Virus record (IMG/VR): IMGVR_UViG_3300025133_000033
Reading direction: 5' to 3' (one strand)
Origin: a virus
Length of the DNA: 64,000 nt
Shown here: positions 732-62,046 of the stretch, in pieces
Numbering within the stretch: the stretch's first letter is position 1
Layout: each line of letters starts with the position of its first letter
Translations under genes and position numbers: made by a program
The notes under the pieces: generated by a model
The model's input: only the letters and a program-made list of their open reading frames with translations
Database searches by the model: none
What the model was told of the DNA's origin: nothing

Positions 732-1129
732 TTCTTTTTCTTTCTCTTCTTTATAGCCTGTTTCTTAGTAATAGGAGAAGGCATACTGCCGTCCTCGGTC
801 ATTCGGGTCATACCAGTAGGCAATTCTTCCATCCCTCCGCTGCGATTTTCCCTTTTATCAAACTTATTAAAGTCCTGGCTCATTTCTTCGCATTTATCTT
901 TGCCGTATTTTTTAGTTTGTTTGTCCGCATATTCACCAAGTGTCGCACACTCGTGGAGACCCTTGATATAATTAGTGACCATAGTATCCGAAGAGTAATC
1001 CCTATAGACCTTACTACTAGAACACTCAGGGCACTCAGCATCATTAAGCTTCTTTTCATAGTCGTTAAAGCTCCATAATTCGCTCCAGGGTTGATCGCAA
1101 TCCTCGCATCTTAAACTATACTCAGGCAT
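728..1129 (-). CDS. FmdB-family zinc-ribbon protein
   Basis: MPEYSLRCEDC...CPECSS pattern; start reassigned to MPEY. Confidence 0.75.
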   Translation of the reverse strand: MPEYSLRCEDCDQPWSELWSFNDYEKKLNDAECPECSSSKVYRDYSSDTMVTNYIKGLHECATLGEYADKQTKKYGKDKCEEMSQDFNKFDKRENRSGGMEELPTGMTRMTEDGSMPSPITKKQAIKKRKKKK

Positions 1130-1772
1130 TTTTTGCTCCTTTAGCAAGGATATCTGCCGCACGAGCCATTACATCCCATCGAGCATCCTTGCAATACATT
1201 AGCTGGAAATCAATAGCAGAGCTAACAGGCTTCTCTTCTTTTGGTTCTGTCCAAGACTTGGTATTCCCAACCATTGTTATTTCTTCTGTAAAGTCATCAT
1301 CAACAGGAAAGATTAGATGCCTACGGTAAGGGCCTCTGCGACCTAATTCATGAATCTCTTCCCTGTCTAAGTCTTTACATACACCAATTGAGCTTCCATG
1401 CATATGAGCTATTTCCGAAGAGTTACTTAATATTTCTTTTCGTGTTTCTTCGTCTATTTGATCGACACTCCAGTTTTTAATGTCCTCCATAGCCTCTGGA
1501 GATATATATAAATCGGAAAGATTACCTTTATCCCAGTAGTAAGAAGGATTTGCTTTCTGCTTTTTCATGACCTCTTTCATTCTTTTAGTGAAACCTTCTC
1601 CATAATCGAATTCCACTAGATTTTCGTCTACCCCTAATGATGCAGGCTCGACCCCCTTTGTGTGGTCTACTAGGTCTTTAGCTTGTCCCGAACGGGAAAG
1701 AGGGCTCGCTCCAACAGCAGCCGCCAAGCCTATAGCACACGTTCTAAAGAAGCTTCTTCTGTTTATATTCAT
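1122..1772 (-). CDS. Tat-signal protein containing capsid-like and tail-tube-like segments
   Basis: NRRSFF, hydrophobic stretch and GQA cleavage site; DLYISPEAMEDIKNW, REEIHELGRRGPY and DARWDVMARA resemble recalled structural-protein motifs. Confidence 0.65.
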   Translation of the reverse strand: MNINRRSFFRTCAIGLAAAVGASPLSRSGQAKDLVDHTKGVEPASLGVDENLVEFDYGEGFTKRMKEVMKKQKANPSYYWDKGNLSDLYISPEAMEDIKNWSVDQIDEETRKEILSNSSEIAHMHGSSIGVCKDLDREEIHELGRRGPYRRHLIFPVDDDFTEEITMVGNTKSWTEPKEEKPVSSAIDFQLMYCKDARWDVMARAADILAKGAKNA

Positions 1773-1974
1773 TTACTACATCCTCGTAAGAAATTCTTGC
1801 TCGTCCTCTTTTAGTTTTCATAACTTTTAGAAAACGCTTTCGTTGCCATTCAATAAAGTATAGCACAGATTCAGTCAATTCGTGGCCATCCAGAAAATAA
1901 TGTTCTGCCAGAATGGGGTCATCAATTAGGTTGTCTGTAAAATGACGGAGAACATCATCTATTTCAATAGCCAT
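1744..1974 (-). CDS. Hypothetical protein
   Basis: 76 aa ORF within the operon. Confidence 0.6.
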   Translation of the reverse strand: MAIEIDDVLRHFTDNLIDDPILAEHYFLDGHELTESVLYFIEWQRKRFLKVMKTKRGRARISYEDVVNEYKQKKLL

Positions 1975-2559
1975 TTAGATAGTAGCCTTTGCTAGTTCTT
2001 TAGGAGGGATAGGAGACCATTGTAAACAGCATAATTTTAGATCAGAGATGGTGCATCTCCTATAGGTATTCCCTCCTTCACTGTTTATTCCACCGTCTTT
2101 TATTATCATAATCAGCTCATACTTCTCACCATAAGGAGTGGCAGGATGGTCTTCCAGAAGATCATATATAGGCTTTCCGTCACGTCGAAGAATATGATAA
2201 GGTTCATCTCGATTATGGAAGGACTTTTGAGCAGGAGACTCGTCCCATCTCATATTTTGATCTCCTAGTGCCTGTAATGTCATGATCGTGACAATACCCT
2301 TGTACTCTATCTCTATCTCAACATCAATTGTACGAAAACGGTCAGGGTTTTCATATAAAGCTATTTGACCAAGCTCAAAGACTTGCTCTAGATCATAAGA
2401 GATAGTAATATTCACGCTTTTAATATTATCTGATGAGATATATTTGGGACCACGACCCTTGACTAGAGGCTCTGCTTTAGCAGCCTTCTCGCCTAAAAAA
2501 GGCAACGCCCCCAGAAAAGGAAGCGTTGCCATAGACTTAAGTAGATTTCTTCTCTTCAT
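1975..2559 (-). CDS. Tat-signal protein with tail-tube-like segment
   Basis: KRRNLLK, h-region and AKA site; SVNITISYDLEQVFELGQIALYEN motif. Confidence 0.65.
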   Translation of the reverse strand: MKRRNLLKSMATLPFLGALPFLGEKAAKAEPLVKGRGPKYISSDNIKSVNITISYDLEQVFELGQIALYENPDRFRTIDVEIEIEYKGIVTIMTLQALGDQNMRWDESPAQKSFHNRDEPYHILRRDGKPIYDLLEDHPATPYGEKYELIMIIKDGGINSEGGNTYRRCTISDLKLCCLQWSPIPPKELAKATI

Positions 2560-2779
2560 CCTCTTGTTCCTCCAGAATATATCCTGAGTAGTTTAAACAT
2601 TTCTTACAGTACAGCTTAGCCGCTCTTAGTTCAACGGCGTCAGGAGACATTTTGAGGCGAACAGATGCGTCAGATTTATTATATCTGTTCGTAACTTTAA
2701 CATTTGGGATGAGTACCGTTACATTATCACCATCGTCGAACATGCGATTACAGCCATCACAACGATTTTCGTGCGTCAT
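2537..2779 (-). CDS. Small zinc-finger protein
   Basis: CDGC...CKKC. Confidence 0.6.
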   Translation of the reverse strand: MTHENRCDGCNRMFDDGDNVTVLIPNVKVTNRYNKSDASVRLKMSPDAVELRAAKLYCKKCLNYSGYILEEQEDEEKKST

Positions 2780-3330
2780 ACTTTAACGAAATCCTTCCAT
2801 TCTTCTGGCATGGACTGCCAAGGGGATAGCCCCACATAGAACGAACCACTCTCAGGTTCTTTAGGCACGGCCAATAGACGCATATTGGCCTGCTTTGGAG
2901 TTCTGTTTCCTTTTGAAGAGTTGCAACGCCAGCAAGCAATAACTGTGTTGTTCCAAGTATGAGCCTCTACAGGGTCATCAAAGTGAGACTTTGGTACAAC
3001 ATGGTCAATAGTAGATTTCCCCGGCTGTACTCCCTCTCCACAGTATTGACAAGAGCGATTATCGCGAATCAATAGGTTCCGCTTTTTCAATGCAATCTTA
3101 CGACGACGCTTAACGTATCGGTTAGATACAGCTACGGCAGGCAGAGGGAACGGATCTCCTCCTGCGGAGATAACATAGTCGTCATCGTAGTATGAGATAA
3201 CACGGATGCCTTCTCCTGGCATTTCTTTACCGATAATGTCCAAGCATAGTGCTCTCTTCCAACTAACAACCAGCAAGGGTCGATAGTCTTGGTTTAAGAT
3301 TAAACATGGTTGGTGCTTTATTTCAAGCAT
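2776..3330 (-). CDS. HNH endonuclease (McrA/HNH_5-like)
   Basis: RDNRSCQYCG...TIDHVVPKS...CWRCNSSKGNRTP. Confidence 0.92.
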   Translation of the reverse strand: MLEIKHQPCLILNQDYRPLLVVSWKRALCLDIIGKEMPGEGIRVISYYDDDYVISAGGDPFPLPAVAVSNRYVKRRRKIALKKRNLLIRDNRSCQYCGEGVQPGKSTIDHVVPKSHFDDPVEAHTWNNTVIACWRCNSSKGNRTPKQANMRLLAVPKEPESGSFYVGLSPWQSMPEEWKDFVKV

Positions 3331-3424
3331 TTTAAAACTCCGGCGAAAGGATTATAAAAACAGCCCTACAAAGATAATTATAGCGGCTTATCACACCTCA
3401 AGGGCATTTTCTAGGGATTCATGT

Positions 3425-3454
3425 AAAAAAAGGGGCCGTGTTTCCACAACCCCT
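3425..3454 (-). terminator. Probable intrinsic terminator
   Basis: AGGGGTTG..CGGCCCC hairpin followed by a U7 tract on the minus strand. Confidence 0.6.
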
Positions 3455-3620
3455 AAGTCACTAATCTGTGTCTATTTTTACTTGGATATTTTTTAACTTA
3501 ATATTAATTTCAACCCCATCAGGAGTCTCTTTAACATCAACTTTATCCCATAGTTTGGTCGCCTTTGCAACATGCTCGCGAGTAATTCCAAGTTCAAGCA
3601 AGAACTTGTCTATCATCCAA

Positions 3621-3950
3621 CTACGTAGTGACCCCGCTCTCTCTTCTCTCTTTTTCGACATCGTTTTCTTCTTCCTCTTTGTGTGCGTCAACTAACATAG
3701 GGAAGACTTCTTTAAGCTTAACGCAAGCCTCGTCTAAGCCGTGCTCACGACAACCATCAGCAAGACATTCCCATTTACATACTAGATCGGCCAACTCAGA
3801 TTCATTATGCACGACAGGCTTTTTCTCTGAGTCATCCCAGAAGTCACCTAAGTACCCTTGGATGGTAGGCCATAGTAAAAACGCACCCGCCGCAAGAAGA
3901 ATAAGTTGAAAGGTATCAAGGTTTTTTACAAATCCTAAAATATTATCCAT
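3621..3950 (-). CDS. Single-pass membrane protein
   Basis: TM segment FQLILLAAGAFLLW. Confidence 0.65.
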   Translation of the reverse strand: MDNILGFVKNLDTFQLILLAAGAFLLWPTIQGYLGDFWDDSEKKPVVHNESELADLVCKWECLADGCREHGLDEACVKLKEVFPMLVDAHKEEEENDVEKERRESGVTT

Positions 3951-3965
3951 TACTCGCCCCTTCTC

Positions 3966-4145
3966 TTATTTGGTTTCACGAACAGCATCACCGATGATCC
4001 ATGCCACAACTATAGTAGAGATAGCAACCAGTTGCTCGGTATCTAATTCCACACCAAACACATCTTGACCAACTACAGCCACCAAACCTGCTGCTGCTGC
4101 CCAGAATCTACGGGATTTTAAAAGCGTTGATAGTTTATTTTTCAT
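3966..4145 (-). CDS. Holin-like two-TM small protein (59 aa, not in ORF track)
   Basis: MKNKLSTLLKSRRFWAAAAGLVAVVG...EQLVAISTIVVAWIIGDAVRETK; KSRRFW motif is typical of small phage holins; preceded by AAGGGG RBS. Confidence 0.7.
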   Translation of the reverse strand: MKNKLSTLLKSRRFWAAAAGLVAVVGQDVFGVELDTEQLVAISTIVVAWIIGDAVRETK

Positions 4146-4163
4146 TATGTTCCCCTTTCAGGA

Positions 4164-4541
4164 TTAATACGATTTAAACCAAAGTTTACGTTCATCGTCA
4201 GTAAACTTATACACCATACCCACAACACCGTCATACAAATAGGCTCTTTCTTTTCTCGGAACCTTGCGTGCTACGACAGTCCATAGGATAAATCTTTGAA
4301 AAATTGAAAGCTTACAGCTTTTTCTAATAGCCAGCTCTTTATCTCGATGATACCAGTTCCAGATTATCATTCCAATCCGGTATAATAGATTCACTAACAT
4401 GATTATAGTGACTATATCAAAGGTATAATTGTCTTCTTTTGCATCTTCACTAGCTAGATCATAGACCTTTGCTGCTAATGGAAGTAGCTCAGGATGATCA
4501 ACTTCTGACCCAAACCGAGCCTGTATTTCTTCTAATTTCAT
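4164..4541 (-). CDS. Hypothetical membrane-associated protein
   Basis: 125 aa with a hydrophobic segment. Confidence 0.65.
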   Translation of the reverse strand: MKLEEIQARFGSEVDHPELLPLAAKVYDLASEDAKEDNYTFDIVTIIMLVNLLYRIGMIIWNWYHRDKELAIRKSCKLSIFQRFILWTVVARKVPRKERAYLYDGVVGMVYKFTDDERKLWFKSY

Positions 4542-5359
4542 CGTCTAAATAGACCTCCGAAAATACCCCTACGTCTATATCTTCTATTAGACGAGGGTGG
4601 TGAAACTTTAGGTGGAGATGCCTTCTTACAAGAGACACACTCTTTCTTCTTTGGAACCTCTACAGGAGGAGCCTCAGTACCACACTTAGGGTTATGGGTG
4701 CATTTCTTACCAGATTCTATGCATGGGCATGGAGTACGGTGCCCATCTCCATGAATAATATATCCCAGCCCCTCGCACGGACAGTCTTCGTCTTCGTCTT
4801 CGTCTGGAGGGTCGGGCTCTACATTAGCATATTCCTTAATCGCTGACAATGCCTTCGCTTTATACGACTCGTATTCTTTATCTTGTTCAGACTTATATAG
4901 TTTCCATGACAAGCCATAGAAGAGTCGAGCTAATCTTCTTTTTTTATCTCCAGTTATAGGGTCCGTATCAGTCTGTGGCCCTAAAACTTTAGTCATAGCT
5001 TTCGCAACGGATGGAGAGAACTTTGGATATTTAGGAGACCCGTTGTCCATAAGCTCCGAACCAAATGTTTTCTTGCCAATAAAATCCATAAGGTATTGGA
5101 CTTGGAGATTCGTGTTAAGCGTAACCTTATCGAGCTTCTCTGATAAAGCATTGAACAGTCCTGCCAGCTTACTAGAGCCAGCATCATCTGAAACACTAAT
5201 ACCGTCAACAAGTGCAACGATATCTGCTTCTGGCTTCTCCAGCTTTGCATCACCTAGAGGTAATATTCCTCCAGACTTATACAAAAACGCTATAGCGATA
5301 AGCAAAATTCCTAGCAGCCCCCTAAAATTTAACCTACTCTCTTTTTCCATTATACCCAA
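4538..5359 (-). CDS. Membrane-anchored protein with Cys-rich C-terminus
   Basis: N-terminal TM; CPCEGLGYIIHGDGHRTPCPC. Confidence 0.7.
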   Translation of the reverse strand: MGIMEKESRLNFRGLLGILLIAIAFLYKSGGILPLGDAKLEKPEADIVALVDGISVSDDAGSSKLAGLFNALSEKLDKVTLNTNLQVQYLMDFIGKKTFGSELMDNGSPKYPKFSPSVAKAMTKVLGPQTDTDPITGDKKRRLARLFYGLSWKLYKSEQDKEYESYKAKALSAIKEYANVEPDPPDEDEDEDCPCEGLGYIIHGDGHRTPCPCIESGKKCTHNPKCGTEAPPVEVPKKKECVSCKKASPPKVSPPSSNRRYRRRGIFGGLFRR

Positions 5360-6276
5360 CCTCCTAAGCCATAATTTGGTAACTGACGTGCAGGAAATCC
5401 TTTTACATCGCTGAACGCAAAGGAACCGCGAGCATTCAAAATGGATCGAGCATCACGCTCACGCACCCAAAAGCTTCCATCAGGTTGACCGTGACGCTTG
5501 GGACCACCATTCCATTTTCCCCAGCTATTCTGAATTAAAAACAACATCTCATCAAAAAGTTCGCGAGTATCATCACAGGCTATCCAGGCCATCGCATGAT
5601 TCCAAGAGCCAGAGCGTCTTGCAATGCCCTGAGCATCACGAGTAGACGAAAAGCCCAGACTACTACAGCATGACAAGGCGTATCCATTACCTAATGCGTC
5701 TCTAGCCTCTTCAACAGTTGACACTAAAGAGATAGTATTAACAGGATGCTTACGTGCCTCTGTTCTATATACTGAATCTGGTATCCGATGCTTAGCACCA
5801 CTAGATGAATCATAAACAGACAAGTCGAAATCAGGATATGCTTTACGAAGCAATACTCCTCCTGTTTGATTTACATATCGTGCCGCACCAGAACAAGACA
5901 TTCCTTGTCCTCTGTGGTCTCTTGACTGGTAAATCCCCTCAGTAGCACCTCGTGCTTCCCAAGATTCAGCCTCTCCTTTAATATCTATTTCTACAGCCCG
6001 AGTAATATCAACGGCACCTCTAGTAGCATGGCTTACACAGTCGCCCGTAGTTTGACGCTCCGAAGGACCATACCCAGGATCAAATTTTATTAAAGATTTA
6101 AACGGCAGACTGAGCTTTCCAGCCCCGCTCTCAGATAGTTCCCACGCTGCCGCACCAAACATAGGCATAGGCAGCTCTCCCAAAAGAGCCTTTAGGTCTT
6201 CTGGATCACACTCTGCTCCCGCAAAGCCCTGTGTATAGGCTTCAACGAGTTCTTCTGGAGAATTATAGTCATCCAT
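5350..6276 (-). CDS. Papain-like (C1) cysteine peptidase
   Basis: Q..GDCVSH catalytic Cys, WNHAM His, QNSWG Asn. Confidence 0.85.
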   Translation of the reverse strand: MDDYNSPEELVEAYTQGFAGAECDPEDLKALLGELPMPMFGAAAWELSESGAGKLSLPFKSLIKFDPGYGPSERQTTGDCVSHATRGAVDITRAVEIDIKGEAESWEARGATEGIYQSRDHRGQGMSCSGAARYVNQTGGVLLRKAYPDFDLSVYDSSSGAKHRIPDSVYRTEARKHPVNTISLVSTVEEARDALGNGYALSCCSSLGFSSTRDAQGIARRSGSWNHAMAWIACDDTRELFDEMLFLIQNSWGKWNGGPKRHGQPDGSFWVRERDARSILNARGSFAFSDVKGFPARQLPNYGLGGWV

Positions 6277-13773: not shown

Positions 13774-14243
13774 TCTTTTATGTTCCTAAAATCAAAAACT
13801 TGTGAGGGGTCAACTGCCAGCTTCTTTTTACCTTTCTCTGTACCACGAAGCTCCATTAGTCGTATCGCTACCTTCTCCATAAATTGCAATCTATGAATAT
13901 CTTCCTGTGCCCATACACTGAGAGCCTGATATACAAACTCTGCTATCTCTCCAGTCTCTATTCGAAGACAAGTACGAGCCAGTAGATCAGCAGATGTTTC
14001 GGAAGCATCCTCTACCGCTGCTGAGACATATAGCTGCCCATCCTTACAGCTATACTCAATACCTATCTTGCCATCGCACTCCTCGTCTTCTCCCATACGA
14101 GCATTATGACAATCAGTACATCGTGCTGAGGTTCCAGCCCAGTAGACAGGGTCGCAGGACTTACCACAGTCGGCACAATCTACGGAGGCAGGGGGCTTGG
14201 CATTATAATCAAAGATTAGTGATACTAACTTTCGCAAAACCAT
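13770..14243 (-). CDS. Hypothetical zinc-binding protein
   Basis: CADC...CTDC. Confidence 0.6.
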   Translation of the reverse strand: MVLRKLVSLIFDYNAKPPASVDCADCGKSCDPVYWAGTSARCTDCHNARMGEDEECDGKIGIEYSCKDGQLYVSAAVEDASETSADLLARTCLRIETGEIAEFVYQALSVWAQEDIHRLQFMEKVAIRLMELRGTEKGKKKLAVDPSQVFDFRNIKE

Positions 14244-15060
14244 CTTGATCCTTTCCGCTTAAAAATGTCCCAATCTTACGTGCCACCCCTAATCGAAACT
14301 CTTGAGGTACTGAGCTATCGCTATAGTCGGTTGTTATATAAGAGCCATTAGCATAGGCGTTGGCTCCTGGGGTAGGTTCTCCCAAAGGTCTCGTAATGAT
14401 TGTGCCTTTTCGCAACACCTGAACCTTACCGCCCTTCATAACATCTGAGGCAAGAGGGTAGTGAGAATTGGTTAAATCAATGTTTACTACATCGTTTAGA
14501 AGAATACCTGCAACAGGCTCGTCTCCTTGTTGTAGTCTAACGCATTCTACTGGGCACTCAGGATGACTTATCCCATCGTAGGTTACTACAGAGCCTTTCT
14601 CTGCCACCTGATCCATAAAAAAGGATGAGTCCACCTCTCGAATATCTCTCTGTGCCCTTAAGCCTTTCGCCGTACCAGTGTCCCATAGATCAAGAGTTCC
14701 CGAAAGAGGAGAAACTCCATAGTTGTGGGTCGTCATAGGAGAGGGGCTGTCAGGACTATGTATCTCATGGATACAATCATCAAGGCTTTCATAATACTCA
14801 ATTTTAAAATCTTCGCCAAGAGGAAGAAGATTTCCCGACCCACCGTTTATGACCTTATTCTCTAGCCACTTTGGCCACTCTGTTCTAACTCCGTTAACGG
14901 AAGTTGTTTCGTCTGGAAACGTAGTCTTAGTATAGGTGACTGCGGCATCCTTTTCAATCGTCGCCTGCTCTATCGCTTCTACTTTTTTTACTAAAGGTGC
15001 TGCTGCTAGAGCACCAATGCCAAGTCCTAATTTTTTAAAAAAATCTCTGCGTCCTGTCAT
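14209..15060 (-). CDS. Tat-signal protein fused to a head-decoration-like domain
   Basis: GRRDFFKK, h-region and VEA site; C-terminal half has SFFMDQVAEKG, GILLNDVVNIDLT, KGGKVQVLRKG, GTFLSGKDQDGFAKV. Confidence 0.7.
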   Translation of the reverse strand: MTGRRDFFKKLGLGIGALAAAPLVKKVEAIEQATIEKDAAVTYTKTTFPDETTSVNGVRTEWPKWLENKVINGGSGNLLPLGEDFKIEYYESLDDCIHEIHSPDSPSPMTTHNYGVSPLSGTLDLWDTGTAKGLRAQRDIREVDSSFFMDQVAEKGSVVTYDGISHPECPVECVRLQQGDEPVAGILLNDVVNIDLTNSHYPLASDVMKGGKVQVLRKGTIITRPLGEPTPGANAYANGSYITTDYSDSSVPQEFRLGVARKIGTFLSGKDQDGFAKVSITNL

Positions 15061-16142
15061 TTCATAATCCCCATTTTATTTACTGTTGAATTGAATAGAT
15101 CTATATCTACATCTGCATATGTTAGTGGTCTACGCTGACTAACATCAGACGATAATGCCGCAGCAATAAACCCTGCGGCTGTAGCCTTTTGCATAGCACT
15201 ATACCCATCTGTTTCAAAGTCAGCATGGATAGCGTGAGAGACGCGATACTCGAAACGATCTGAGTATCCCCATACATCTAAAATAACAATATCTTTTTCT
15301 CTATGAGGGGCAAACAATTCTGATAATCCCTTTGGAGAGAATCCTTTGGTATGAATAAAGTAGTGGACAAGATCTCTATGTCCTTGGTATCTTAGTGTCT
15401 TGTATGAGCAATGCTTAACCCCTCTGTCTTTCATTAACTGGAGAGTATGCGATGCTCCACCGCTAGTAAAAAAGGCTTCAAGCGGGGTATGACACCCCTG
15501 CCAATTGAGAACCCCCTGAGTTTTTACATCCTCTAGCCCCAACATTCCCGGCACTGTAGTAATCTTTCCGCCCTCTAGCACTTCACAGTCGTCTGCATAC
15601 TCGTTGTACAATCCATCAGCAGACCATGTTTTTGCATACCCGAACGGATCTTCGTGCTTTGGTAGCTGCTGTGCTGAAAGACCTCCGCAACGCATTCTTA
15701 TTTCTTCTACTGCACCTGTACGAGACAGCTCTCTATAGGCTTCCTCTGCCATTATATTTACCCATCCCGGTGCAAGCCCTAGATCAGTGAATACTGTAGC
15801 ATTTTTATATCTCTCGTTGATTTTGCGGCTGATAGGTACTGACCCACCAAGATCAAAATACGGAACGTCTGCCGCTACCGCTAGGCTTGCAACCTTGGGA
15901 TTATAGAAGTAGGGCAGGGCCGAGAATACAAGGTCAAAATCTTTTCCATATATAGGACTTGTCTCATGACTATATGATTGATTAACATCAATACTATGAT
16001 ATTCATCACACTGTAAACCTCTAGGGCATTCCTCTTCTCTATCAAACGCTACTATAGAAATAGGTTCTGAGAAGTAGACCGTTTTCAGTAGGTGGATGAT
16101 GGCCTTTCCCATTCCACCTGTTCCGAATATAGCTATCTTCAT
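15057..16142 (-). CDS. Saccharopine dehydrogenase / lysine 6-dehydrogenase family protein
   Basis: GTGGMG Rossmann motif, SALPY, YFDLGG, GLAPG, WSADGLYNEY, KTLRY. Confidence 0.85.
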   Translation of the reverse strand: MKIAIFGTGGMGKAIIHLLKTVYFSEPISIVAFDREEECPRGLQCDEYHSIDVNQSYSHETSPIYGKDFDLVFSALPYFYNPKVASLAVAADVPYFDLGGSVPISRKINERYKNATVFTDLGLAPGWVNIMAEEAYRELSRTGAVEEIRMRCGGLSAQQLPKHEDPFGYAKTWSADGLYNEYADDCEVLEGGKITTVPGMLGLEDVKTQGVLNWQGCHTPLEAFFTSGGASHTLQLMKDRGVKHCSYKTLRYQGHRDLVHYFIHTKGFSPKGLSELFAPHREKDIVILDVWGYSDRFEYRVSHAIHADFETDGYSAMQKATAAGFIAAALSSDVSQRRPLTYADVDIDLFNSTVNKMGIMK

Positions 16143-16172: not shown

Positions 16173-17342
16173 CTAGATTGTTTGATCATAATGTGTTCGT
16201 GCTACGCGAACGAAATCTGCACACTTGCTCATATCTTTAATTGATGTTGAACCAATATACGAACAGCAGCTACGTATACCTCCTACTATATCTCTTAATA
16301 CGTGTTCTGCTGATCCCTTATAATCAATATATTTTACTCGACCTTCGCTGGTCTTATAGTTTTTCATTTCACCACAGTGTTTGTCTTGTGCGTGCTCTGA
16401 TGACATTCCATAGAATTCAAGCTGTGCTTTTACTAGACTTTCCGAGCTTATGATACTCTCCCTCTCTAGTTCTTCTAGAAGAGAAAGGTCTTTTAGGGTG
16501 TTTTTGGGGAAGGTAGGATCACGATATAACCATTTACCCTCACACTCGTCTGTACCAGCCAACATGCCCCCAAGCATCACAAAATCTGCGTTCGCCGCGA
16601 AAGCCTTACAAACATCTCCAGGCGTGCGACAACCACCGTCAGCACAGATCAGTCCTAGCCGTTTCTCGTAGCTCTTGAGGCCGTGGGCAGCATGAGAACA
16701 CTCTGCTATGGCCGAGAGCTGAGGATAGCCCACTCCTGTCTTGAGGCGTGTCGTACAGGCTGAGCCAGGACCGATGCCAACCTTGACAATATCCACTCCT
16801 CCATGCAAGATTAGCTCTTGAACCATCTCAGGAGTACAGACGTTGCCAGCCATAATAATAGGGTACTCATCATTGGTGGCATAGTGTTCTCTAATCTTAG
16901 AGCAATGCTTAACAAAATCGTCTGTGTATCCATTAGCTACATCAATACATATATTAGGAACGCCTTCTATCTCAGTGACTAGTGCGTCCAGTCTATCAAA
17001 ATCATGGTCTTTGATGCCTATACTAACCCAGGCGTGAGCCATTAGCCAGCTCTTTTCTGCTTCGTGAACATCGTTAAAGAACTCTGCTAATTCGGGATAG
17101 GTATAATGCTTATGAAGACACGTAATCATGTCATGAGCCCATAAACGATCAGCCATATCTATAGTTCCTGTAGTATCCATGTTAGCAGCCATGATAGGCG
17201 TGCCACTCCAGGTTCTATTCGAGTGATAAAACTGAAAGTCTCTCTCGACAGATACGCTCTTGCGAGATGCTGCCCTAGTACGCTTAGGGACCAAGAGAAC
17301 ATCATCAAAGTCAAGCTTCAGATCATTCTTTATTAGCGACAT
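16173..17342 (-). CDS. guaC: GMP reductase
   Basis: [44 protein letters not shown]. Confidence 0.95.
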
Positions 17343-17556
17343 TACTAGCAAATCCTATCTTGTGTTTTTCAGAACGGGCGTGATCACGAACTTCATACTC
17401 AGCCAACCATTTATCATGTCTAGCATCACCATTCCACCAAACGACATTGTATATAACCCCCGATTCACGAATAGTTATAGCATGAACATGCCCCTTGATG
17501 CTCTTTCCATCAGATTGCCATATCTCTACTTCGGTTCCGATTTTGTATAGAGTCAT
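17323..17556 (-). CDS. Small hypothetical protein
   Basis: 77 aa coupled ORF. Confidence 0.6.
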   Translation of the reverse strand: MTLYKIGTEVEIWQSDGKSIKGHVHAITIRESGVIYNVVWWNGDARHDKWLAEYEVRDHARSEKHKIGFASNVANKE

Positions 17557-20286: not shown

Positions 20287-20591
20287 TGGTGGAGCCGGGG
20301 GGGATTCGAACCCCCCGTCCCTAATTGTTTTCAATAAAGCGTCTACGTGTTTGTGTCGAGCTAAGCCCTGCACGACCAAGGGGCAGGATAGTTTAATGAC
20401 CTCTTACAGTCCAGCTTCAAAACAGGTATCTAGCTTTGGTTAACAGGGTGCTAGATAACCCCTACTGCTTACGCAGCTAAAGCAAAGTTTTCGTTTGCAA
20501 TTAAATGTTAGTCAATTTTTTAGGTAGCCCTTTGACCAACTACCACACGCAACTTTACATCCGTCCAATAGGTCGAAACCAAGTCGGCCCC
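20287..20591 (-). ncRNA. ssrA: tmRNA with tag (A)ANENFALAA
   Basis: 5' GGGGCCGACTTGGTTTCGAC; 3' GTTCGAATCCCCCCCGGCTCCACCA; tag ORF at 20469-20498. Confidence 0.96.
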
Positions 20592-20597
20592 AAACAG

Positions 20598-20669
20598 AGA
20601 GCGAAGAGGGATTCGAACCCCCGTAGATCTGAGTTGCAGTCAGACGCCTTGCCTCTCGGCCACTCGCTC
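20598..20669 (-). tRNA. tRNA-Cys(GCA)
   Basis: Cloverleaf; anticodon loop CTGCAAC. Confidence 0.9.
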
Positions 20670-20675
20670 TAAAAG

Positions 20676-20747
20676 TGCAGCTACGGAGAATCGAACTCCG
20701 ATCTCAACGTTGGCAACGTTATATACTAGCCTTTGTACGATAGCTGC
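20676..20747 (-). tRNA. tRNA-Gly(GCC)
   Basis: Anticodon loop TTGCCAA. Confidence 0.9.
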
Positions 20748-21107
20748 CTATTCTTCCTCAATTGCTTCTCTAACAATTCCTACCCACATATCATCAAGTT
20801 CGTGATCGGTAAAGTCGCCAGGAAACATCTTGCGAATCTGATTCCTAACAGCCATACCCTCTCGAAAATGAACAGGGTGAGGGACTGCCCCGTTAAAGAT
20901 TACAGGATCAACTCTGCCATACTCTCTATAGTAGTCACGGAAAAGTTCGATACCTTCAGGCTTTAACCAGCCCCTAACTCTCTCAACAATATCTTGTCGT
21001 TGAGTTTTCCTGTTGTTTTTAATGACTATGATCCTTGACTTGCTTGCTCCAATGACAAACCTCTCGTCTTTGATACCAGTGTACCATTTTATGACCGTGT
21101 TCATCAT
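20748..21107 (-). CDS. Hypothetical protein
   Basis: 119 aa ORF. Confidence 0.55.
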   Translation of the reverse strand: MMNTVIKWYTGIKDERFVIGASKSRIIVIKNNRKTQRQDIVERVRGWLKPEGIELFRDYYREYGRVDPVIFNGAVPHPVHFREGMAVRNQIRKMFPGDFTDHELDDMWVGIVREAIEEE

Positions 21108-21214
21108 GCTCTACGATCACCAACCAAAACGGAAGGGAAAGTAGGCGTCTGCGTGCATTCTTATGTTCGAATGTCTTACCGCACTTAAGTGCAACATTAA
21201 TAGTATTCATAATA

Positions 21215-21544
21215 CTACCTCCGATAGTACCGTGTTTTTCCAGCTCTAAAATCGAACGTACTATATCCCCGGTACTGAGAAAAATTAACATTAACGCCAA
21301 ATCTTACATACCTCTGTGGCGAGATGTAAGTTGGCCCGATACTCATGTATGTCCCGGTTGGATACCAAGTAACAACTGGGCGATAGGCGATCACAGGCCC
21401 ATGCCTGTGTAGCCCTGCGTGGGGATGTGCGTGCCAGTGTCCGTTGTGATGGTGCTGACCAAAGGCATCGCTTGCAAAGAAGCCAAGGGAAAAGAACATC
21501 AATTGGACAAAGAAAAAGAACAAGATTAAAAGTAGCTTCTTCAT
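21215..21544 (-). CDS. Secreted His-rich small protein
   Basis: MKKLLLILFFFF signal; HHHNGHWHAHPH; start reassigned because the longer ORF overlaps a tRNA. Confidence 0.65.
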   Translation of the reverse strand: MKKLLLILFFFFVQLMFFSLGFFASDAFGQHHHNGHWHAHPHAGLHRHGPVIAYRPVVTWYPTGTYMSIGPTYISPQRYVRFGVNVNFSQYRGYSTFDFRAGKTRYYRR

Positions 21545-21562
21545 TACATCACCTTTATAGAG

Positions 21563-21633
21563 TGCAAGATATCGGAATCGAACCGATGACCTTTGAGTGG
21601 AAGTCAAATGTTTTACCACTAAACTAATCTTGC
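21563..21633 (-). tRNA. tRNA-Gly(TCC)
   Basis: Anticodon loop CTTCCAC. Confidence 0.85.
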
Positions 21634-21705
21634 CAATGTTCCTTTGCGTGACAGTTGGCACATAGAACTACACATTTTTCAATTTCTTTGAAGATTTTGG
21701 AAACG
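21633..21705 (-). pseudogene. HNH endonuclease C-terminal relic
   Basis: Reads SKIFKEIEKCVVLCANCHAKEHW with no upstream gene body. Confidence 0.7.
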
Positions 21706-21788
21706 CCCCCAACGTCTTGAGGTAGGCCCGTCAGCCTATGATCTGCGTGGGAATCGAACCCACCTATGTCCGTTTATCAACGTTTCAG

Positions 21789-21861
21789 TGAGAGCGGTGG
21801 GAATCGAACCCACATTATCTTGGTTAAGAGCCAAGTGCATTACCTTATCTGCCACACTCCC
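21789..21861 (-). tRNA. tRNA-Lys(CTT)
   Basis: Anticodon loop CTCTTAA. Confidence 0.9.
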
Positions 21862-22144
21862 GTTAAAGCCCGCCTCGGCTGGTGGTACTAACGGACCCTC
21901 ATAAAGTCCTCCCACATTCTTATTTAAACGTCGGCTACAACGTACCGAATTTCGCATCCTTCTAGAACAGATGCCGAGCCTTATCATCACTCTTAGTCAT
22001 CCTGACTTAACGAAAACTTTTCAGCGTCCGAATAAGCCATACAACCGCTCACAGCGTCCATAGACGCCCCCGCTACCACAGCACTTCTTCAAGTTCACCA
22101 AAAGTTAAGGTATTCATCAAATTCTCCTTATCACGTTAGTGAAG

Positions 22145-22217
22145 TAGGCAATAAGGGAGTCGAACCCCTTCTTCTAGTTCCGTAGACTAGCGTGCTATTC
22201 CGTCACACTCATCGCCC
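22145..22217 (-). tRNA. tRNA-Arg(ACG)
   Basis: Anticodon loop CTACGGA. Confidence 0.85.
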
Positions 22218-22222
22218 AAATA

Positions 22223-22540: not shown

Positions 22541-22546
22541 AATAAA

Positions 22547-23067: not shown

Positions 23068-23098
23068 GTCCTGTCCTTTCGAGTTCCAAGTAAGTAAG

Positions 23099-23184: not shown

Positions 23185-23189
23185 ATTAG

Positions 23190-23263: not shown

Positions 23264-23268
23264 ATGAG

Positions 23269-23516: not shown

Positions 23517-23530
23517 GTGTTATTAGCTAT

Positions 23531-23685: not shown

Positions 23686-23704
23686 AGTCTTCGCTAATAA
23701 ATTG

Positions 23705-55330: not shown

Positions 55331-55354
55331 AGCTTTTCTCTATTAAAAGTAAAG

Positions 55355-55436
55355 TGTGCCGAGAGGGATTCGAACCCCCAACGTTTCTTTGTAACTGATT
55401 TACAGTCAGCGTGCTTCACCATTTGCATATCGACAC
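55355..55436 (-). tRNA. tRNA-Tyr(GTA)
   Basis: Loop CTGTAAA; long variable arm. Confidence 0.9.
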
Positions 55437-55444
55437 ATACTAAG

Positions 55445-55516
55445 TAGGACTGGAAGGAATTGAACCTTCAAGGCCAGCCTTATAAGAGCTAGTGGAGTAC
55501 CATCTCGCTCAGTCCC
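55445..55516 (-). tRNA. tRNA-Ile(TAT)
   Basis: Loop CTTATAA; GGGACTG/CAGTCCT acceptor stem; A73. Confidence 0.75.
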
Positions 55517-55521
55517 ATAAG

Positions 55522-55593
55522 CTGACCCCCTGCGATTTGAACGCAGAATACGAGGACCAAAACCTCGTGTGTTACCTGTTACACCAAGGGCCA
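55522..55593 (-). tRNA. tRNA-Gln(TTG)
   Basis: Loop TTTTGGT; U1:A72, G73. Confidence 0.88.
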
Positions 55594-55606
55594 ATAAAAA
55601 GCCTAG

Positions 55607-55679
55607 TATCGCGGACGGGAATTGAACCCGCATAGCCCAGCTTGAAAGGCTGAGTGCCTAACCAATACAGCACCGCGAC
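55607..55679 (-). tRNA. tRNA-Glu(TTC)
   Basis: Loop CTTTCAA. Confidence 0.85.
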
Positions 55680-55688
55680 ATATATAAG

Positions 55689-55802
55689 TCTACCCTGCGG
55701 GAATCGAACCCGCTTGCGTTTCACACTCTTACGCCTTATGTTTCGAACCACTCAACTTATCGAGCCTAGCTAGTTACGCACGCCACCACGGTTCAAGAGC
55801 AG
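55689..55802 (-). ncRNA. tRNA-like RNA with expanded anticodon region
   Basis: CTGCTCT/AGGGTAG acceptor stem and perfect T arm; TGCGT/ACGCA stem encloses ~55 nt. Confidence 0.5.
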
Positions 55803-55871
55803 ATAAAAAGTGACTCGTAAAAGAATCAGTGGGAGAAGCAAGAGGGGCTTTGTACCCTCTCCGGTCTACCA

Positions 55872-56060
55872 ATGATACTTCCTCATTCAAGTTCTTCTCA
55901 TTCTAATACTAACGATCCTTGTCTCGCCAGCATTGATCGTATCAATCCTAATAAAGGGTATATAACTGATAACATTCAATGGGTTTGCTTAATAGGTCAG
56001 TATTGTAAAAATATATACTCTATGGAAGATGTAATTAAATTTTGCAATGCTGTAAGCAAA
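55872..56060 (+). pseudogene. Inverted HNH endonuclease relic
   Basis: ASIDRINPNKGYITDNIQWVC..KN..EDVIKFCNAV, homologous to the C-terminal half of 19714-20232. Confidence 0.75.
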
Positions 56061-56061
56061 G

Positions 56062-56135
56062 GGGCTGGAGGAGGATTTGAACCTCCAAACACTTGATTTA
56101 ATACAAGCCGCTTTGATCTATTAGCGTACCCAGCC
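56062..56135 (-). tRNA. Degenerate tRNA with 8-nt anticodon loop, identity undetermined
   Basis: Acceptor and T arms intact; loop TATTAAAT. Confidence 0.5.
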
Positions 56136-56145
56136 AAAATAAAAG

Positions 56146-56214
56146 CAGCGAGCGATGGACTTGAACCACCATATCCTGTGCCCAGGCAGCATTAGACTTA
56201 TGCCGAACTCGCTG
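56146..56214 (-). pseudogene. Degenerate tRNA-like element
   Basis: CAGCGAG/CTCGCTG stem and T arm; shortened anticodon arm. Confidence 0.5.
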
Positions 56215-56276
56215 TAAATTAAGATAAGTGTTTATGGGTTTTCCACTATAGTTGACCCTTTATTTTTTTTTCTGAG

Positions 56277-56351
56277 TGGTACGAGGAGGATTTGAACCCC
56301 CGACAACCGAACGCTTCAAGATCGTGCTCTACCAAGCTGAGCTATCGTACC
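56277..56351 (-). tRNA. tRNA-Phe(GAA)
   Basis: Loop TTGAAGC; canonical D arm. Confidence 0.85.
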
Positions 56352-57674: not shown

Positions 57675-58520
57675 TTAAGTAGCGTGGATTTCATCGCAGT
57701 CATAAATTCTATACTCACATACCCCAATACCTGAAGGATTAGGAAATCCTCTTCTATTGTTTGCGATTTGCATATTTATCTCATGACTGCGATGCCTATT
57801 CTTTTCTTTATAATGTTCAGTCCTTAACTCTTCATGATGATTCATTGACGAAATCAAGGGATGCCCCTCGATTTGATGGATAATATACAACTGATTCAAT
57901 CTCACGTACATATCGTTGTCTTCCCATCCCCATCCCTCCATTAGCTCGTCATACCCTCTTACCGCTAAAAAGGCAGTCATGGTCATAGCCATAGCACATT
58001 TACCCGACATTAAAACATCTTTGATATGATTAATGGCAGATATATCTGTAGCTCTCTCTCCCTCGCTATAAATAGCTTCTCCTGCCGCATACATAGTGCC
58101 TCCAAGACCATACTTAGAGCAATACCAGTCTACAGGATTAACTACGTGTGCTCTATCGTATCGTATAGGCTTAGTAATATTATACAGCCAAAGAGGTTCT
58201 ACTAATGTATCGGCATCTGAAAAGTTAATGATATTAGCATCTGCCAACATAACCCCACAATTCCTTGCCCTAGACAAGTTAAAGTAATCGGTTTTATCCT
58301 CTACTTTTATTACTCGTAAATTGGGCAAGGGATTGCGATGGAAATATTCAAATGTACCGTCAGGACAACCATAATCTACAAGCACCACTCTATAGGTAAA
58401 TGTATCCCTAGTGTCTTGGCTGCACATTTTCGGCAGCGTATCTTTAAGGTAGTCCAGTCTACCTTTACACGTAACAACAATAGCTACATCTTTAGTAGGC
58501 TCGGGCGTATTTGACTCCAT
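57675..58520 (-). CDS. GT2/GT7C glycosyltransferase, copy 1
   Basis: Same motifs as copy 2; DAD. Confidence 0.88.
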   Translation of the reverse strand: MESNTPEPTKDVAIVVTCKGRLDYLKDTLPKMCSQDTRDTFTYRVVLVDYGCPDGTFEYFHRNPLPNLRVIKVEDKTDYFNLSRARNCGVMLADANIINFSDADTLVEPLWLYNITKPIRYDRAHVVNPVDWYCSKYGLGGTMYAAGEAIYSEGERATDISAINHIKDVLMSGKCAMAMTMTAFLAVRGYDELMEGWGWEDNDMYVRLNQLYIIHQIEGHPLISSMNHHEELRTEHYKEKNRHRSHEINMQIANNRRGFPNPSGIGVCEYRIYDCDEIHAT

Positions 58521-60304
58521 TAAGCTACCGCCAATTCAGGTTGAGCCTCAAATAGCTTGGTAAAGGTATCCTTTTCCAATTTATCCAGAGACAGATCAAC
58601 ATCTGCTTCATCAGCTTCGTCAACAAACTGAACACCCAGATCCAACAGTAGCTCGTTAAAGCTAAGAGGATTAGACCATTGCTGGTATAGTGCATTGATA
58701 GCTTGCTGTGGGTTACGACCAGACACTCTCGCGTGACCTGCACCAAAATTCAATAGCACAAAGGCATGTTGCTTTACACCTCCAAGCTTAGGAGGCAGTA
58801 ACATTCCAACTACAGTTTGTTTTTGTACAGAATTACACTTAACTTCCATAAACAGGTTGTTAGGGTTCATCATGTACTTCATATTAATACGATCTCCACG
58901 ACCGACAATGATCTTGTAGCCCGCATCAGGATTACCGCTATACACGTTATTCATGATCAGGTATGCCTGAGACAAACCCTCCGATGAATATAGGTATTCT
59001 ACCGCACCATCTGGAGCATTAGTAATATCTCCAGAATACGCTAGAACATCATCGCTATAGCTAGAGTTCCATCCAATCTTACCTCCCTGAACATCCAATG
59101 CCGACAGGTCATGATCGTTAGCACCCCAATCATTACGCCAGTATACTCCGCAGGCCAATCTCTCACCATAGAACTTAGTTCCAGTTGGGACATTTCCCAC
59201 GAACATCTTTTCAGATGTAGGTATAGCATACTCTACGTCACGAGGCAATAAGACCTTAGTACCAGTCAAATCGAATCTCAGCTTAAGGTAATCGTACAGA
59301 ATACCAAAGTTAGTCACAGGAATAACAACCGAACTAGTTGCTTTGTCTGCAATCCAACTCTTACCATTTCTAATTCTGTAAACAAAATCAGTCTGGCGAC
59401 CCATACGATTATAGCACGCAGTAAGTGCCTTGAACAACGCAAACGGAGTCGCATTGTCCAACCAGTGTCTATCTGCATCTGTCAGCTTACGCTGAGTTAC
59501 CAAGTTCAGAGGGTTAGTCACAAGAGGCTTATGGTTGCTCTTGGACAGCTTACTGATCTTGTTAATTACTTTAGGACATTGACCCTTGAACGCTAGGAAT
59601 AAAGGCTTAAATCTATTGAAGATTTCCGCCAGCTTACCAAGACCAAAGCTTTTTAGTTGAGCCGCAGGATTAAAGTTAGTATCTTTAATCTTAGCGATCA
59701 TCTCTGGACTCTTAATCAGCAGGGACTCTCCAGTCGCTCTGAAGAGAATGTAACGAAAAAACTCCATTGTATCTGTAGGTAAGATACCATACATATCGGC
59801 AATCTTAATGATAGCCTCCTTGTTCTTGATACCTTCCTTGCCAGTAAACGAGTAGTCTAGCTCGTCAACAAGCACCGACAGTACGTCGTTAATTGTTTCT
59901 TCTGTTAAAGCAATACCGCTTTGCAACATACCAAGACACTTCTTAGTCATCGCAGTCTTGCAGTACGATTTAATAACCGTATACTTTAACTCCAGACCAG
60001 GAACCTCAAGTTCCTCGTCAGGGATGTATATTTCTCCCTTAAGGTCAGTACCATAGGTAGACAGATAGTGTCTGATCTGCTCGACCAACAACTCGTAACG
60101 AGACGAGCTGATCACCTTCTCCCATGACTTATGGAAGGTTTTGTTCAGATCATTACCGCTCAGCTTTTGCTCAGCATAAAATGCTACAATATTATCCTTA
60201 GCCCACATAGCATCAGACTGGATAACATACCCTTCGTCAGATACGAATACTTCTGCCTTAGATGGCTTAGCAATAACAGCATTAAACAACTTCAGTGTCT
60301 TCAT
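58520..60304 (-). CDS. Large helical protein with C-terminal TerD-like domain (594 aa)
   Basis: GVYW..DHDLSAL..IGWNS..YSGDITNAPDGAVEYL; start reassigned to MKTLKLF. Confidence 0.65.
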   Translation of the reverse strand: MKTLKLFNAVIAKPSKAEVFVSDEGYVIQSDAMWAKDNIVAFYAEQKLSGNDLNKTFHKSWEKVISSSRYELLVEQIRHYLSTYGTDLKGEIYIPDEELEVPGLELKYTVIKSYCKTAMTKKCLGMLQSGIALTEETINDVLSVLVDELDYSFTGKEGIKNKEAIIKIADMYGILPTDTMEFFRYILFRATGESLLIKSPEMIAKIKDTNFNPAAQLKSFGLGKLAEIFNRFKPLFLAFKGQCPKVINKISKLSKSNHKPLVTNPLNLVTQRKLTDADRHWLDNATPFALFKALTACYNRMGRQTDFVYRIRNGKSWIADKATSSVVIPVTNFGILYDYLKLRFDLTGTKVLLPRDVEYAIPTSEKMFVGNVPTGTKFYGERLACGVYWRNDWGANDHDLSALDVQGGKIGWNSSYSDDVLAYSGDITNAPDGAVEYLYSSEGLSQAYLIMNNVYSGNPDAGYKIIVGRGDRINMKYMMNPNNLFMEVKCNSVQKQTVVGMLLPPKLGGVKQHAFVLLNFGAGHARVSGRNPQQAINALYQQWSNPLSFNELLLDLGVQFVDEADEADVDLSLDKLEKDTFTKLFEAQPELAVA

Positions 60305-60326
60305 GATCCTGGTCCTCGATAAAAAA

Positions 60327-60713
60327 GGTGGAGAGTAAAGTTTGGCAGGCCCGTTCCCCGAGGGGTGGGCCAATCAGTGAAAATAGGAACTCTCGTTACC
60401 CGTTCGTTTCCTTGTTTTATTAAAGTGATGGAGAGTAAATTAAGGCGGGGTTACCGCCAGTTTTCATAGATAGGAACTCTCTTTACCACTCCTTCAATTG
60501 TACTATTTGTTTCGTATAAAGCAACCCCTAAAAATAAAAAGATGGAGAGTAAAATCTGACATATATATAGGAACTCTCTTTATCTTTTGTTGTTTTAGAA
60601 AGGCGGGAAGTAAGGATTCGCCATTGAAAAGAATAGGAACTTCCGGTGCCCATTGGTTAAAAAGGCGGGGGATAAGGTACTTACAATAGTTATATATAGG
60701 AATCCCCGTTGCC
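60327..60713 (-). repeat. Array of five covarying RNA hairpin units
   Basis: Units at 60327-60400, 60425-60489, 60541-60584, 60602-60650 and 60664-60713; invariant TAA...ATAGGAA on the + strand. Confidence 0.85.
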
Positions 60714-60884
60714 GTTATACTCTACGACTCGTTGGTTGGTTGTGATTCTCTTAACTCTTCCAACCATTGCATAAGCTTTTCTACCTTTTCTTCTGTAGTC
60801 TCTTCTTTTTTAGTTGACATTAGCCTTCACTTTTGCCTCCACCTTGATTTCAGTGATGCATGTAAAACTTATCCAAAAAATGAG

Positions 60885-60959
60885 CGACCCCAACCGGAAT
60901 CGAACCGGCAACCTCTAGATCGACAGTCTAGTGCTCTAACCTGATTGAGCTATGAGGCC
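60885..60959 (-). tRNA. tRNA-Asp(GTC)
   Basis: Loop CTGTCGA. Confidence 0.9.
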
Positions 60960-61115
60960 AAATTATTAGTGGAAGTAAAAATCGCTTACAACTTCTTCTT
61001 CTACATACTTCTTTATATATATACGCTAGGATGAACCAACTTGTTAGGTATCTCATACATAAGACAAAAAGCCCTATGCCTAGCGTAAGTCTCAAAATAT
61101 AACTCCAATATTTCT

Positions 61116-61388
61116 TTAGTCAACATAAGGCTCTGCCACTGTAATACACTTTGATGTATCTTCGTAACTTGAACCAGCAGTCATCGCACCAGGACTCTCA
61201 ACGCCACTATAGTAGTAACTTTGATTGATGCTACTAATACCCTGTGACACATTCTCAAACTCATTAATGACAGCAGTACGAACACTGTTCAAACCAGTCA
61301 CCAAACCTGCGACTAGAATACCACTCACCATAATATATTCAGCGGATATGATGCCGCCAATTTCATCAGCCCATAGTTTTCTCAACAT
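61116..61388 (-). CDS. Flp (type IVb) pilin-like protein
   Basis: LWADEIGGIISAEY followed by a hydrophobic helix; INQSY. Confidence 0.75.
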   Translation of the reverse strand: MLRKLWADEIGGIISAEYIMVSGILVAGLVTGLNSVRTAVINEFENVSQGISSINQSYYYSGVESPGAMTAGSSYEDTSKCITVAEPYVD

Positions 61389-61427
61389 AATTGATCTCCT
61401 ATTTTCATAAAATTTACCCTTTATAAG

Positions 61428-61501
61428 TCTGGATGAAAGGAGTTGAACCTTCGACCCCTTGGTCCCAAACCAAGTGCTCTACCAAGCTGAGCTACATCCA
61501 G
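61428..61501 (-). tRNA. tRNA-Pro(TGG)
   Basis: Loop TTTGGGA. Confidence 0.92.
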
Positions 61502-61506
61502 TCAAG

Positions 61507-61580
61507 CATGTGCGGCAGGAATCGAACCTGCAACCGGCAGTTTTGGAGACTACTGCTCTCCCTAATTGAGCTACGCACAT
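61507..61580 (-). tRNA. tRNA-Trp(CCA)
   Basis: Loop CTCCAAA. Confidence 0.9.
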
Positions 61581-61652
61581 ATACAACAGCTTATTCTACA
61601 CCAACTGTACCATCCGATGTACCGTTTGTCAGCATTTAAATTCCAAAAAAAG

Positions 61653-61724
61653 TAGGGACAGAAGGATTCGAACCCTCAATGTCTGGTTAGAAGCCAGAAG
61701 TGATTTCCATTTCACCATGTCCCC
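61653..61724 (-). tRNA. tRNA-Arg(TCT)
   Basis: Loop CTTCTAA. Confidence 0.9.
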
Positions 61725-61803
61725 TCAGTATGTCCTTAATTATACACCATGTTTTCCAAAAAGAGATAGAAAAGAATAGGGGCCGAAACCCCCATCCTAG
61801 TGG

Positions 61804-62046
61804 CTACTTCAAGGCACTCTCCATGTCTCTTTTCACCTTTTCTCCACAAGCCTTAATATCATCCATCTCGGTCTTAAGACCAGCGACCTCTTTCTCCACT
61901 TCCTTCATTCCAGCCTTAAAACTAGGCAGAACTTTACCGGCGTTACGGGCCAGTTTAGGAAGGGCACTTGCTCCGAACAGCAGAACCACAATTCCACCTA
62001 TGATCAAGAGTTCAGTTACTCCAGGCATAGCGAATGCAAACATCAC
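61804..62046 (-). CDS. tatA: Twin-arginine translocase subunit TatA
   Basis: PGVTELLIIGGIVVLLFG..LPKLAR..GK....FK.GM. Confidence 0.9.
   Translation of the reverse strand: MMFAFAMPGVTELLIIGGIVVLLFGASALPKLARNAGKVLPSFKAGMKEVEKEVAGLKTEMDDIKACGEKVKRDMESALK

Follow-up and report, generated by a model that had tools for sequence, protein, structure and literature searches.

The window analysed here is a stretch of 64,000 nucleotides from the IMG/VR virus record IMGVR_UViG_3300025133_000033, and coordinates are window positions unless a contig is named. Every gene in it lies on the minus strand. Three open reading frames (ORFs) start with leaders of the twin-arginine translocation (Tat) type, carrying a twin-arginine (RR) motif, and continue into bodies derived from virion proteins; the same DNA encodes a predicted Tat translocase subunit, TatA. 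Such leader-bearing virion paralogues will be referred to as cargo genes. The features are as follows.

1122..1772, minus strand: ORF1, 216 amino acids; Tat-type signal, then pieces matching capsid residues ~157-239, tube ~240-280, tube ~132-153 and capsid ~111-141
1680..1772, minus strand: signal-coding part of ORF1, residues 1-31, NRRSFFR ... GQA; TIGR01409 14.8 bits
1975..2559, minus strand: ORF2, 194 amino acids; Tat-type signal, then the N-terminal conserved motif of a putative tail-tube protein
2473..2559, minus strand: signal-coding part of ORF2, residues 1-29, KRRNLLK ... AKA; R3 and R4 invariant in the family alignment
14209..15060, minus strand: ORF3, 283 amino acids; Tat-type signal, ~100 residues without detectable relatives, then a complete cement/decoration protein (132-283)
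14974..15060, minus strand: signal-coding part of ORF3, residues 1-29, GRRDFFK ... VEA; TIGR01409 15.8 bits
61804..62046, minus strand: predicted TatA/E-type translocase subunit, 79-80 amino acids; PF02416, TIGR01411; its start overlaps the stop of an upstream envelope-type gene of 183 codons

Tat-Type Leaders and a Phage-Encoded TatA

In all three ORFs the RR motif lies within the first 10 residues, being of the RRxF(F/L)(K/R) type in ORF1 and ORF3 and RRNLLK in ORF2, and is followed by an h-region rich in Ala, Gly and Leu and by a c-region that contains a basic residue and closes with a site of the A-x-A type. When the window was scanned in all six frames, from every start codon, for a Tat pattern consisting of an RR motif and a hydrophobic stretch, ORF1, ORF2 and ORF3 were the only matches obtained. 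With shuffled N-termini, the 107 ORFs of the minus strand gave a mean of 0.118 matches compared to the three observed, and at least three matches occurred in none of 2000 shuffles. Since the three leaders differ in sequence from one another, they behave in this respect like generic signal peptides. Both arginines are kept in every homologue, while the bodies are only 30-46% identical. Leader types are moreover common to different bodies; the leader of P0002, a homologue of ORF1, for example resembles that of Tat102, an RR-signal protein of the relative G001 (IMGVR_UViG_3300023199_000021; 130,845 bp, terminal repeats, rated complete). Against the NCBIfam Tat signal model TIGR01409, which has a cut-off of 16.7 bits, P0002 reached 21.5 bits and a second ORF1 homologue, P0003, 16.4 bits. 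Judged by sequence, the N-termini of ORF1, ORF2, ORF3 and a fourth cargo gene introduced below thus display every feature of Tat signal peptides.

The product of the tatA gene passed the curated cut-offs of both PF02416 (52 bits, E 4e-14; cut-off 21) and TIGR01411 (tatAE, 56.0 bits; cut-off 53.9), and its score of 24.8 bits against the TatB model was below the cut-off of 56.5. Its layout comprises a single hydrophobic segment from residue 1, an F-G hinge and an amphipathic helix. The phage encodes one TatA/E-type subunit of the twin-arginine translocase, and this gene is so far the strongest sequence-level argument for the leaders being Tat signals. No TatC was found in the complete relative G001, and no multi-spanning membrane ORF in the window.

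The genes neighbouring tatA (61116-61388 and 62043-63068) look envelope-type, and none is conserved in G001. The former encodes a 90-amino-acid protein with a pilin-like hydrophobic N-terminus and no family match; a reading as Flp pilin found no family support and was dropped. The neighbours further include a 183-amino-acid protein with a lipoprotein-like start and a 154-amino-acid protein with one membrane helix.

Virion Origin of the Cargo Bodies

Neither a capsid nor a portal gene was found in the 64-kb window. The reference capsid genes were taken from relatives, and the capsids obtained by scanning metagenomes are not provably those of the window phage. Searching with ORF3 led to phage contigs in which genes for a portal, a protease/scaffold, a 160-amino-acid protein and a 335-amino-acid protein follow one another in this order. 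The 335-amino-acid family is the major head protein, as it matches phrog_2522 (E 3.6e-6) and also a protein of Bacillus phage G that is annotated as major head protein. The 160-amino-acid family represents the cement/decoration protein, homologues of which carry PF22758 (E217 gp24 / Pam3 gp6); the true cement gene of the relatives is located directly upstream of the capsid gene. A family of ~370 amino acids, for which the gene follows that of the capsid at a distance of 5-6 kb in contig L003 and in G001, showed a weak match to PF18906 (Phage_tube_2, E 0.003) and by language-model features resembles Phage_tube_2 (likeness 0.97) and Phi812 tube clusters. We consider it a putative tail tube protein. 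A profile search of the PDB with this family was empty and no cultured-phage match was obtained; Genes of the tail region in G001 and L003 likewise had no matches in Pfam or PHROGs.

With these references, residues 47-114 of ORF1 were aligned to capsid residues 157-231 (47% identity, E 9e-19) and residues 183-209 to capsid residues 111-137 (E 4e-6), the capsid ~111-141 piece consisting of a strand and the spine helix. The capsid blocks of ORF1 are in swapped order, and the two tube segments between them are likewise swapped. ORF1 had no full-length collinear match to the HK97-fold capsid family (phrog_2522; phage G gp27-like) and is capsid-derived without being a capsid protein itself. Residues 37-97 of ORF2 align to tube residues 27-85, giving ~60 residues shared with the ~370-amino-acid family, and a full-length match to this family was not found; the rest of ORF2 is unassigned. 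The alignment of ORF3 residues 132-283 with the cement protein covers all of the latter except its first residue (38% identity, E 2e-22). Against PF22758 itself ORF3 scored 18.4 bits (cut-off 27), and with PF22758-bearing proteins it gave an end-to-end alignment (E 4e-14); no match to cultured phages was detected. The gene sits between thymidylate synthase and dehydrogenase genes and not beside a capsid gene. A portal-like motif considered in the ORF3 extension was discarded (shuffle P about 0.35).

The fourth cargo gene, P0085 (L005:5071-6207), is located 1.5 kb past the window start. Its product begins with KRRDFVK and an h-region, and the body is a full-length capsid paralogue, with 326 residues aligned to the head protein (E 5e-44). 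The phage thus has at least four cargo genes. Judging from all these alignments, their bodies are either diverged copies of the capsid, cement and putative tube proteins of the lineage itself or patchworks in which pieces of these are reshuffled. Structure prediction with AlphaFold2 yielded predicted local distance difference test (pLDDT) values of 51.6 for ORF1 (segment-wise alignment) and 41.8 for ORF3, too poor for fold searches. Owing to this low confidence, the two models are uninformative either way on folding. An ESM Atlas model of ORF2 (pLDDT 0.36) was set aside, its structure neighbours being meaningless.

Diverged homologues in other phages have reshuffled bodies, with portal pieces among them. 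Those of ORF1 (254, 206 and 216 amino acids) and of ORF2 (277, 224 and 198 amino acids) all start with an RR signal. P0002 and P0003 keep the patchwork order of ORF1 together with an intact signal at 35-46% identity, and in the family alignment of the ORF2 homologues P0076, P0077 and P0083 both arginines are invariant and the bodies 30-39% identical. P0067 carries capsid blocks in their native order, and P0076 joins capsid, portal and tube pieces. On the short IMG/VR contigs L019 and L020, two or three such genes lie side by side in arrays, one of them with three capsid blocks reversed and another with no more of the capsid than its final ~20 residues. Deletions inside tandem arrays would be expected to yield such swapped orders and mixed origins.

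The initial annotation of this DNA had proposed three Tat-type N-termini, a phage TatA and mature parts resembling capsid, tube and decoration proteins. All three proposals were borne out, the first by the sequence features and by finding only three pattern matches against 0.12 expected, the second by the curated family cut-offs and the third by the alignments of ORF1, ORF2 and ORF3. Its description of the three ORFs as otherwise unrelated had to be abandoned: one and the same tube protein is represented by pieces in both ORF1 and ORF2, and a single design underlies the three ORFs as well as P0085. The functions suggested there, as decoys for structure-sensing defences or as superinfection-exclusion factors, are hypothetical.

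Turnover of Cargo Genes and Co-Occurrence with TatA

The genome of G001 is syntenic with the window at a protein identity of 30-78%, and its TatA is 77% identical to that of the window. After recA it encodes an RR-signal protein of 343 amino acids, which is a capsid paralogue over its full length and 24% identical to P0085. At the ORF1/ORF2 locus, a leader remnant of 49 amino acids and an 83-amino-acid ORF (one tube piece and the capsid spine helix) are present, interrupted by stops. The ORF3 locus is occupied by Tat102, a 102-amino-acid RR-signal protein ending in a portal piece, which is trailed out of frame by a C-terminal cement half (G001:125590-126110, L109); this arrangement may represent a fusion that has been frameshifted, a programmed shift or a pseudogene. 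The three cargo loci are conserved between the relatives, and their content changes by loss, fusion and decay. The Tat-capsid orthologues are 24% identical, compared to 44-78% for neighbouring genes and about 68% for the true capsid genes; the cargo genes therefore evolve much faster than their neighbours and undergo gain, fusion and loss.

Among 49 IMG/VR contigs with the tube family, TatA was found in one, G001, and the other 48 lack it. Extra capsid-like matches were restricted to four contigs: G001, L019, L020 and one in which the paralogue is truncated and leaderless. In each of five other complete relatives there is a single capsid gene, no TatA and no Tat-tagged virion paralogue; the Tat pattern matched only a lipoprotein, a prepilin-type protein and short ORFs lying off frame. 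By comparison, the credible Tat-type ORFs of G001 and of the window are all virion paralogues. Within this one clade, TatA thus goes together with Tat-tagged virion paralogues, so that the link between TatA and cargo drawn in the initial annotation gains support: both are found in G001 and both are absent from the five other complete relatives. The possibility that the tagged proteins are the only virion copies could be excluded for G001, the structural module of which holds separate ordinary cement, capsid and tube genes.

Two further proteins were noted in these relatives. Contig G037 (L141:6145-6849) encodes a leaderless, truncated capsid paralogue of 234 amino acids beside DNA polymerase III and exonuclease genes. 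In G018 (73782-74906, L159), a 374-amino-acid protein has a prepilin-type N-terminus; proteins of this kind are abundant in Planctomycetota, which would be a possible host hint for the phage group.

Genomic Setting

The window contains 24 tRNA genes, grouped in three islands, and also a tmRNA (tag ANENFALAA); they occupy 20287-26315, 55354-56351 and 60884-61724 on the minus strand. It further encodes ribonucleotide reductase, dCMP deaminase, ClpP, thymidylate synthase, an IMPDH-family gene and glycosyltransferases. Its proteins recur in marine metagenomes, on contigs that reach 175.7 kb, and no DNA-level match to cultured phages was obtained. On the basis of this gene content, the absence of capsid and portal genes, the marine contigs and the absence of a cultured DNA relative, the window is the non-structural half of a large uncultured marine phage. 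The cargo genes are placed amid replication, nucleotide-metabolism and lysis genes outside the structural module. Shine-Dalgarno-like sequences (GGAGG or GAGGA) precede ORF1, ORF2 and tatA, and a weaker GGGGA precedes ORF3. ORF1, ORF2 and ORF3 have intact frames, which recur without change in 13-16 independent contigs and also across marine runs; contigs from four marine runs are near-clonal, with zero variants within the three ORFs. No RNA data are listed among the public runs carrying the window sequence.

One further ORF belongs to the ORF1/ORF2 region.

1744..1974, minus strand: ORF of 76 amino acids between ORF2 and ORF1; no family; within the block that is missing or only a remnant in G001

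A likely lysis cassette (3621-6276) lies 1.4 kb upstream of ORF2. It comprises a 59-amino-acid holin (phrog_9987, E 1.6e-5), membrane-anchored proteins of 109 and 273 amino acids, and a well-conserved 308-amino-acid protein that is papain-like by its motifs and had no family match. Adjoining ORF3 is a saccharopine-dehydrogenase-like gene (15057-16142), which is absent from G001, and nearby an IMPDH/GMP-reductase-family gene (16173-17351). Elsewhere, a 617-amino-acid protein (58520-60713) had no Pfam match, and at L005:7822-10326, ~4-7 kb past the window start, Pfam matches indicated a DnaB helicase with a LAGLIDADG-type insertion, a probable intein.

Functional Interpretation

Our preferred explanation, although a tentative one, is that the cargo genes and tatA form a fast-evolving accessory export module, the virion mimics of which would serve in conflict with host sensors or rival phages. 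The cargo proteins would be made in the cytoplasm and targeted to the presumed TatBC receptor of the host, to be exported or held at the inner membrane, and the phage TatA would raise the capacity of the translocon. The bodies are probably mimics, because short linear pieces are kept in any order and originate from four virion proteins; they would engage the usual binding partners of the segments concerned. The partner might be an unassembled virion subunit of a co-infecting relative or a host protein that senses virion proteins. Once bound, this partner would be moved to the membrane or through it, in the manner of Tat "hitchhiker" export, by which bound partners are carried across. The Tat route would be used because this pathway moves folded proteins together with their bound partners (PMC4273604).

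A more specific version is a "bait and expel" device, in which Tat-tagged capsid, portal, tube and cement mimics, produced outside the late structural module, would capture cytoplasmic proteins recognising these segments and expel them via the TatA-enlarged translocon. The captives could be host abortive-infection sensors or subunits of a rival phage. In this narrow form we consider it unlikely.

Several points weigh against the proposed export module. ORF1 and ORF3 fall just short of the TIGR01409 cut-off (14.8 and 15.8 versus 16.7 bits) and ORF2 had no match to this model; the Pfam model TAT_signal (PF10518) gave no match either. Tat prefers folded cargo, and the patchwork bodies may not fold. 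A mimic binding a host sensor might trigger rather than disarm it. TatA homologues are found in scattered phyla and so do not point to one host, the TatBC of which is presumed. The association of TatA with cargo is confined to one clade and therefore counts as one evolutionary event. Finally, the copies in G001 are partly decayed, and the cargo genes are thus dispensable there.

The main rival is superinfection exclusion in the periplasm, where exported mimics would block DNA entry of related phages, for instance by capping the penetrating tail tube. Envelope proteins encoded in accessory loci of phages are classic exclusion factors, and the rapid turnover and divergence of the cargo genes would be in accordance with such a role, as would the tube pieces of ORF1 and ORF2 and the location of both genes 1.4 kb downstream of the holin-like gene, near envelope functions. 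Exclusion accounts for the tube pieces but not for those of capsid, cement and portal, which never reach the periplasm of the infected cell and yet supply most of the cargo. The retention of very short linear pieces in any order is also left unexplained, and we regard this alternative as doubtful.

Alternatively, the leader might serve not for export but as a membrane anchor or another tag, TatA might be an unrelated host-takeover gene, and the bodies might act in the cytoplasm as dominant-negative proteins on the assembly of rivals. This would be in line with the leaders of ORF1 and ORF3 scoring under the curated Tat cut-off and that of ORF2 giving no match, with the distance of ~47 kb between tatA and the nearest cargo gene, and with the leaderless truncated capsid paralogues in the related contig G037. 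Interference with assembly by phage-encoded proteins is known (PMC10884400), and the bodies would then resemble the capsid-size factors of satellites or Tab, the tail assembly blocker of the Pseudomonas prophage JBD26. The full set of Tat features with invariant arginines speaks against this alternative, as does the finding that all credible Tat-type ORFs of G001 and the window are virion paralogues and that none occurs in the relatives lacking TatA. It is therefore judged improbable, somewhat more so than exclusion.

That the patchworks are merely the debris of duplicated virion genes decaying without function would agree with the stop-interrupted remnant and the out-of-frame cement half in G001 and with the low confidence of the structure models, but is very unlikely, given that ORF1, P0002 and P0003 keep both patchwork order and signal at 35-46% identity, that the frames are intact and identical in 13-16 independent contigs and across marine runs, and that chance does not give four separate duplicates a complete Tat signal.

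Relation to Known Systems

The leaders share the N-terminal twin-arginine signal with n-, h- and c-regions of known Tat substrates, including the hitchhiker-exported PaoABC of E. coli (PMC4273604). In contrast to substrates of this type, the cargo described here is phage-encoded and virion-derived, is often a patchwork of short segments and includes no cofactor enzyme. An additional TatA-type gene travelling with particular cargo genes has a counterpart in B. subtilis, where TatAd-TatCd is dedicated to PhoD. Here, however, TatA occurs alone, without TatC in G001, is not adjacent to the cargo genes and is carried by a large phage of the lytic type.

Sensors that recognise short conserved virion segments are exemplified by the Lit protease with the Gol peptide of T4 gp23 and by capsid- or tube-sensing defences; in the present case, the phage itself would make such segments as separate export-tagged proteins. 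T4 Imm, Sp and HK97 gp15 are periplasmic superinfection-exclusion proteins with Sec-type signals or membrane anchors. The cargo genes are similarly accessory, envelope-directed by their leaders and variable between relatives, whereas Imm, Sp and gp15 are not virion-derived and the cargo proteins are, by their alignments, and carry Tat-type leaders. Tab and the capsid-redirecting proteins of satellites are accessory proteins aimed at the virion assembly proteins of other phages. As far as its abstract goes, Tab is described neither as a virion-protein copy nor as bearing an export signal (PMC10884400); the window cargo has both by sequence.

A literature search retrieved no paper on Tat-tagged virion paralogues or a phage TatA, and a 2026 review of Tat mentions phages only in other contexts. 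The combination of a phage TatA with Tat-type leaders on copies and patchworks of the phage's own virion proteins is thus a design found in no paper. If the cargo proteins are exported, these phages would turn the folded-protein export of the host to their own use by sending copies of their own shell and tail to the envelope, a strategy matched by no described phage strategy. The module would then also be an experimentally tractable example of how phages cope with the recognition of conserved virion proteins by defences or by rivals.

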